Assembly (NCBI RefSeq): GCF_001677475.2 | Contig: NZ_CP015229.1 | Source: Escherichia coli | Lineage (GTDB): Bacteria; Pseudomonadota; Gammaproteobacteria; Enterobacterales; Enterobacteriaceae | Strand: one strand, 5' to 3' | Length of the DNA: 64,000 bases | Part shown: positions 36,204 to 36,418 of the stretch, piece by piece | Position numbering within the stretch: the stretch's first letter is position 1 | Layout of the letters: every line of letters starts with the position of its first letter | Notes under the pieces: model-generated | Database searches by the model: none | What the model saw: the letters and a program-made list of their open reading frames with translations, nothing else | What the model was told of the DNA's origin: nothing | Program-made: the position numbers and the translations under genes

Positions 36204-36308
36204 TTTTTTCCCTTAGATTCATCTGACTTACGCATAGTGATAAACCTCTTTTTCGCAAAATCGTCATGGATTTACTAAAACATGCATATTCGATCACAAA
36301 ACATCATA

Positions 36309-36320
36309 GTTAACGTTAAC
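36309..36320. promoter_or_regulatory. perfect 12-bp palindrome GTTAACGTTAAC, candidate LacI-family (CscR) operator, copy 1
   Basis: Exact self-complementary 12-mer in the cscK/cscA divergent intergenic region. Confidence 0.45.
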
Positions 36321-36323
36321 ATT

Positions 36324-36339
36324 TGTGATATTCATCGCA
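36324..36339. promoter_or_regulatory. CRP-like site
   Basis: TGTGA-tattca-TCGCA: one mismatch from TGTGA-N6-TCACA, 4 bp from palindrome copy 1. Confidence 0.4.
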
Positions 36340-36372
36340 TTTATGAAAGTAAGGGACTTTATTTTTATAAAA

Positions 36373-36384
36373 GTTAACGTTAAC
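36373..36384. promoter_or_regulatory. perfect 12-bp palindrome GTTAACGTTAAC, candidate CscR operator, copy 2
   Basis: Second exact copy 64 bp from the first, about 35 bp upstream of the cscA start. Confidence 0.45.
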
Positions 36385-36418
36385 AATTCACCAAATTTGC
36401 TTAACCAGGATGATAAAA

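Follow-up and report, generated by a model that had tools for sequence, protein, structure and literature searches.

The closest described system is the csc regulon of Escherichia coli EC3132 and W (PMC11251922, PMC3938415). According to the summaries of Jahreis et al. 2002 given in both papers, two copies of a 12-bp inverted repeat at csc are putative CscR operators, one of which carried a derepressing mutation, and a CRP site lies adjacent. The -35/-10 of the cscA promoter lie between the repeats, the downstream one of which covers the transcription start site; a putative Crp-cAMP site is located next to the cscA -35, and the sites are conserved in five species (PMC11251922). For the bidirectional csc promoter, two cAMP-CrpA sites have been reported, a cyaA::Tn5 mutant is unable to use sucrose, both csc operons are under cAMP control, and derepression by operator mutation is also credited to Steen 2014 (PMC3938415). 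We take CscR-dependent repression, cAMP dependence and the derepressing mutation from this literature, in which the operators are termed 'putative'. Our literature search, whose reach ended short of the primary papers (Jahreis 2002, Sabri 2013), found no EMSA or footprint of E. coli CscR. A search for mapped csc start sites returned nothing relevant, and a full-text search with the 12-mer as query led to unrelated papers only. The CscR of a bioRxiv 2026 biosensor was discarded as a source of E. coli binding data, since that protein is from Pseudomonas protegens.

Sucrose regulation has also been described for ScrR, with operators O1/O2 at the scrY promoter of pUR400 and Klebsiella (Cowan 1991; Jahreis and Lengeler 1993, both in PMC11251922). 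As far as the account given there goes, ScrR belongs to a different orthologous group, its 14-bp repeats are of another sequence and its CRP site is poorly conserved (PMC11251922). In our comparison of csc loci, the CRP site is base-exact. For LacI-family sites in general, an even palindrome with a central CG is the rule, about 20% of the regulated operons have more than one site, and inter-site distances peak at 13, 22 and 32 bp (PMC4052901), none of which is matched by the 64-bp spacing at csc.

With regard to site order, csc resembles the lac O3-CRP-O1 arrangement, i.e., an auxiliary operator is followed by a CRP site, the core promoter and a main operator at the start. At lac, the loop held by the LacI tetramer spans 92 bp and CRP is bound at -61.5, whereas CscR is without the tetramerisation helix, the csc interval measures 64 bp and its CRP site (CRP1 below) is predicted at -41.5. 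A further likeness is that to the CytR-CRP complexes (deoP2, cdd), in which a LacI-family repressor site likewise lies between two CRP sites and upstream of at least one regulated promoter. The CRP sites regulated by CytR are spaced by about 52-53 bp, and the operators of CytR are weak and depend on CRP; at csc, in contrast, 41 bp separate the CRP centres and the operator is perfectly palindromic.

The DNA analysed here, a window of 64,000 bp, comes from a different E. coli strain and shows nothing of substance that differs from EC3132 and W. It has the same locus with identical operators, i.e., two 12-bp inverted repeats, a Crp site by the cscA -35 and an operator over the start. Comparison with the published operator descriptions, as proposed by a sequence-only reading of the window, returned the same two repeats and the same CRP site. 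That is, the twin palindromes are the already published putative CscR operators, and finding them is a rediscovery and not new.

The csc locus and its twin palindromes

The csc genes of the window and the two operator cores, for which an exact palindrome, conservation and literature are the evidence, are the following.

33970..35217, minus strand: cscB, sucrose:H+ symporter (oligosaccharide MFS transporter)
35289..36203, minus strand: cscK, fructokinase
36309..36320, no strand: O1, putative CscR operator core distal to cscA, GTTAACGTTAAC
36373..36384, no strand: O2, putative CscR operator core proximal to cscA, GTTAACGTTAAC
36419..37852, plus strand: cscA, sucrose hydrolase (invertase), with the RefSeq start codon at 36419
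37860..38855, minus strand: cscR, LacI-family repressor of 331 aa, presumed ligand of O1 and O2

Positions 36204-36418 (215 bp) are exactly the cscK-cscA intergenic region, and both copies of GTTAACGTTAAC are inside. The gene coordinates agree with the earlier placement of the pair between the divergent cscK-cscB and cscA. GTTAACGTTAAC is a self-complementary 12-mer with CG at its centre. Its two copies are the only exact ones in the window. They are spaced by 64 bp from start to start, just as first reported, with 52 bp in between. The repeat extends beyond the 12-mer: 14 bases are identical (AGTTAACGTTAACA), and over 22 nt the identity is 86%; O1 together with its flanks reads ATAGTTAACGTTAACATT. 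From the end of O2 to the cscA ATG there are 34 bp, and the start of O1 is 105 bp from the cscK ATG. The 'cscKB operator' of the literature is probably O1.

A chance or compositional artefact was considered for the twin palindromes and rejected: 100 dinucleotide-preserving shuffles contained 0 copies of GTTAACGTTAAC, which is moreover the top recurrent palindrome of the 74 loci compared below.

Of 5,426 complete E. coli genomes, 2,645 have the csc locus, and that of the window is about 99% identical to O157:H7-type csc loci. The 215-bp intergenic region itself has no 100% match among the 5,426 complete genomes, the best reaching 99.1%. The csc locus (33900-39100) finds a best match of only 60-80% identity in 138 E. 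coli records; these matches may represent a second locus, divergent and csc-like or of scr type, that some strains possess. Regarding the start of cscA, in-frame ATG codons are located at 36410 and 36419. The ORF list takes the former, the RefSeq start on identical loci is the equivalent of 36419, and an AGGA lies 7 nt upstream of the 36419 ATG. For CscR, the top NCBIfam model is CytR, yet far under the cut-off.

Recurrence of the motif at CscR-homolog loci

Scanning with the CscR protein, using one genome per species, yielded 74 loci from Enterobacterales, Orbaceae and Aeromonas with homologs of 48-96% identity. In an unseeded test on these loci (914 kb), GTTAACGTTAAC is the most recurrent perfect 12-nt palindrome with 75 copies in 60 loci, and the next-best palindrome is found in 17 loci only. 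When 12-mers of every kind are counted, those shared most widely are overlapping versions of GTTAACGTTAAC. When up to one mismatch is allowed, the operator is present in about 70 of the 74 loci, i.e., it co-occurs with its cognate regulator and is visible as a phylogenetic footprint. Pairs with at most one mismatch sit in the promoter region of the cscA-type operon in any gene order, of which there are at least seven.

E. coli type: cscR, then cscA on the opposite strand, operator pair, cscK, cscB
Rosenbergiella: the divergent gene is cscB
Pectobacterium, Samsonia, Rahnella: MFS gene upstream of cscA
Enterobacter, Klebsiella, Raoultella: pair between the MFS-cscA operon and the regulator gene
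Yersinia, Aeromonas: cscB-cscK-cscA divergent from cscR
Further orders: Proteus and Providencia; Gilliamella

Among 58 pairs, the spacing is 64 bp in 37 cases, 63 bp in six, 62 bp in two, 57 bp in four (Gilliamella) and 68-69 bp in nine (Proteus). The symmetrised consensus, aaT-GTTAACGTTAAC-Att, is an even palindrome of 16-18 bp with a central CG; the 12-bp core together with this cross-species consensus shows the operator form of an even 16-22 bp palindrome centred on CG. Within nine Escherichia sequences, O1 and O2 are invariant and nearby bases are variable.

We consider it very likely that O1 and O2 are the operators of CscR, with repression exerted from O2 at the cscA start and from O1 on cscKB. 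This assignment is made because the exact duplication is not due to chance, the sites have the LacI-type form and cscR is adjacent. It is further made because the motif recurs in 60 of 74 homolog loci, because sites with at most one mismatch occur as pairs, mostly 62-64 bp apart, and because the published summaries agree. The suggestion that the palindromes are what CscR would bind is thus in line with the published view and gains independent cross-species support.

Several loci deviate from or add to the E. coli arrangement. In Enterobacter, Klebsiella, Raoultella, Kosakonia, Serratia and related taxa (L028-L059, L069, L073, L074), a CscR homolog of about 56% identity is divergent from an MFS/cscA-like operon, and between these genes lies a two-operator, two-CRP module of 64 bp spacing (e.g., L039 5787-5862; L051 5790-5865), a position that implies autoregulation. 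The operon-proximal site of the Enterobacter/Klebsiella-type loci is consistently GTTAACGTTACC (one mismatch), and their CscR homologs are resembled by PDB 6ndi (334 aa, E 2e-114). A scan for operator-like sites with up to three mismatches upstream of the window's cscR (38856-39333) found none. Judging from the sequence, E. coli cscR appears to be without autoregulation via the GTTAACGTTAAC motif, unlike the homologs of Klebsiella, Enterobacter, Yersinia and Aeromonas.

Gilliamella and other Orbaceae have, in addition to the 57-bp pair upstream of cscA, an extra operator-like pair TTTAACGTTAACATGTTAATGTTAAC between cscB and cscR, with the sites 14 bp (or 20 bp) apart (L036 5820-5845, L043/L044 5824-5849, L065 5824-5849, L037 5707-5732, L046 5739-5770). 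This extra pair fits the class of 'overlapping sites ~13 bp' of LacI-family factors (PMC4052901). The Proteus loci (L019-L027, L070; e.g., L019 8594-8674) have the variant operators GTTATCGTTAAC and GATAACGTTAAC, 68-69 bp apart, and no CRP core is recognisable between them. In L070, the interval between the 3' ends of cscR and cscA holds a further exact GTTAACGTTAAC (7027-7038), and most Providencia loci have a single exact site. Lachnospiraceae LacI-family proteins that are about 27% identical to CscR (L075, L077-L079) come with related palindromes, GTTAGCGCTAAC plus a degenerate second copy, 140-200 bp apart and about 30-230 bp upstream of the regulator gene.

CRP sites and promoter positions

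Besides the operators, the intergenic region holds the following sites.

36236..36243, minus strand (that of cscK): TTATCAnT block, candidate cscKB -10 by conservation, with presumed function
36283..36298, no strand: CRP2, weaker CRP-like site with a 7/10 core match, TGCATATTCGATCACA (cscK strand TGTGATCGAATATGCA)
36324..36339, no strand: CRP1, predicted class II activator site of the cscA promoter by a 9/10 core match, conservation and literature, TGTGATATTCATCGCA
36360..36371, plus strand: candidate cscA -10, TATTTT (36360-36365) or TATAAA (36366-36371), read from the sequence and fitting CRP1 at -41.5

The TGTGA-N6-TCGCA next to O1 had been taken for a CRP site, and this reading stands: CRP1 has 9 of the 10 core bases of TGTGA-N6-TCACA, is conserved and matches the published view. 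Only four sites in the 64-kb window score at least 9/10. Its adjacency to O1 is confirmed as well, the gap being three bases (36321-36323, ATT); the 4 bp given before are the end-to-start difference, i.e., a matter of counting convention. In other Escherichia, CRP1 scores 10/10. The right half of CRP1 (36335-36339) is TCGCA in the window and in six other sampled complete-genome E. coli strains, and equals the consensus TCACA in two divergent sequences, E. coli SCPM-O-B-8794 and Escherichia sp. MOD1-EC7003. The TCGCA variant could be one of the reasons why csc-dependent growth of E. coli is reported to be slow.

CRP2 matches the core at 7/10 positions in the window, and the score rises to 8/10 in the Klebsiella/Enterobacter group and to 10/10 at one Providencia locus. 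Its strong half GATCnCA / GTTTTGTGATC is invariant and always 10 bp from O1 across gene orders. Altogether, the sites form a module in the order CRP2, 10 bp, O1, 3 bp, CRP1, 33 bp, O2, with CRP centres 41 bp apart. Where the spacing is 62-64 bp, CRP1 starts exactly 3 bp past the distal operator at nearly every locus, and the four-site module is base-exact in dozens of species with at least five gene orders. We compared 38 distinct modules of 64-bp spacing without gaps. Both operators and CRP1 form the near-invariant columns, with the operator columns near 2 bits, and the 33-bp spacer between CRP1 and O2 is nearly random (about 0-0.5 bits).

No consensus sigma-70 promoter with at least 9/12 matches was found within 36150-36470, so promoter positions were deduced from CRP geometry and conservation. 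Such an absence is to be expected for an activator-dependent cscA promoter. Adding 41.5 to the CRP1 centre (36331.5) gives 36373, the first base of O2. If CRP1 is at -41.5, bases +1 to +12 of the cscA transcript are thus predicted to lie within O2, which agrees with the published position of the downstream operator (PMC11251922). The likeliest cscA -10 would be TATTTT at 36360-36365. With respect to the claim that the palindromes flank the divergent promoter, the pair does bracket the cscA core promoter; the claim does not extend to the divergent promoter as a whole, since O1 lies between two CRP-like sites.

On the cscK side, the conserved elements of species with E. coli gene order are GTTTTGTGATC (CRP2) and TTATCAnT, the latter being invariant in Escherichia, Citrobacter amalonaticus and Pluralibacter. 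If TTATCAnT is the -10, cscKB would start near 36230, with CRP2 at about -61.5 (class I), O1 at about -85 and CRP1 at about -102. Compared to eight other Escherichia sequences, the window has two private substitutions, G at 36216 and A at 36303. The latter is located between CRP2 and O1 and makes a minus-strand TATGAT hexamer (36308-36303, cscK strand) beside O1. This hexamer was considered as the cscKB promoter and is an unlikely one, because it needs the private A, where other Escherichia have G or C, and would also put the conserved CRP2 downstream of the start.

Action of CscR from O1 and O2

Under the preferred assignment to CscR, a dimer on O2 would cover the start site of the class II CRP-dependent cscA promoter and thereby block RNA polymerase. 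Another dimer, bound to O1 at a distance of 3 bp to CRP1 and 10 bp to CRP2, would lower the expression of the divergent cscKB and probably strengthen the repression of cscA, too. Once sucrose or a derived sugar binds CscR, both O1 and O2 would be vacated and cAMP-CRP would activate both promoters. Which base serves as transcription start and how O1 acts are points that we infer. If the candidate cscKB promoter is the right one, O1 lies upstream of it, and simple occlusion could not explain the derepression reported for the 'cscKB operator'. Alternatives are an interference with the flanking CRP dimers, bridging to O2, or a cscKB promoter that is located elsewhere.

The first of these would be a CytR-like anti-activation, in which CscR on O1, placed between two CRP dimers, excludes or neutralises CRP and thereby controls cscKB from upstream; it is compatible with occlusion at O2. 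The site order is what one expects here, i.e., the repressor site lies between two CRP sites, its exact distances of 3 bp to CRP1 and 10 bp to the conserved half of CRP2 are kept in nearly all loci with 62-64 bp spacing, and the order is conserved. With TTATCAnT as the -10, O1 has no overlap with the polymerase site, and the cyaA requirement and cAMP control have been reported (PMC3938415). On the other hand, the cscKB promoter could lie elsewhere, CRP2 reaches just 7/10 in E. coli, and the weak, CRP-dependent operators of CytR type have no counterpart in O1 and O2, which are perfect and strongly conserved palindromes. We regard anti-activation as a possible addition to the preferred reading, if on balance a doubtful one.

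A more specific version treats the four sites as a rigid module, in which a purely dimeric repressor on O1 controls the divergent promoter from about -85; it would do so by neutralising or displacing CRP (CytR-like), or by bridging to O2 with the help of the CRP bend. We consider this version unlikely. If true, control via O1 from about -85 would be a mode not described for the csc system.

The sequence-only reading had also proposed that the spacing of the palindromes could allow DNA looping. CscR on O1 and on O2 would then be in contact, with the 52 bp that hold CRP1 and the cscA core promoter looped out as for LacI on O3/O1. That 45 of 58 pairs, from many genera and gene orders, are spaced by 62-64 bp would suit such a loop, as would the phase (64 bp are about 6.1 helical turns) and a CRP site at fixed position inside the interval, given that CRP bends DNA. 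However, the 331 aa of CscR align to LacI residues 5-329 and then end, i.e., there is no counterpart of the LacI tetramerisation helix (330-360), and the closest solved homolog, 6ndi, also has just 334 aa. Nor does the spacing appear to keep phase in every lineage, since relative to 64 bp the pairs of Gilliamella (57 bp) and Proteus (68-69 bp) are shifted by about half a turn. Furthermore, 64 bp follow from the promoter geometry alone, i.e., 12 (O1) + 3 + 16 (CRP1) + 33, with O2 at the predicted +1. Looping is thus possible in principle but unsupported, and we rate it as quite unlikely.

That a different regulator (e.g., Cra/FruR or another LacI-family protein) binds here, or that the repeat is a functionless duplicated HpaI-site sequence, is hardly credible: the central AACGTT is indeed common to many LacI-family operators including Cra-type ones, but the motif tracks the CscR homolog in 60-70 of 74 loci and seven gene orders, even directly upstream of the regulator gene, its GTTAA arms differ from the Cra consensus arms, shuffling gave no copies, and the operators are invariant next to a spacer that is free to evolve.

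The sites were described in 2002 and re-examined in 2024, and the assignment of O1 and O2 to CscR is nothing new in kind. What the cross-species work adds is a definition of the CscR motif, aaTGTTAACGTTAACAtt, and a two-operator, two-CRP module that is base-exact across many loci of Enterobacterales, Orbaceae and Aeromonas. Through O1 and O2, as putative operators, the chromosomal sucrose catabolism of E. coli is switched on and off, which is of practical use given that industrial strains, e.g., E. coli W, have their csc regulon derepressed on purpose.
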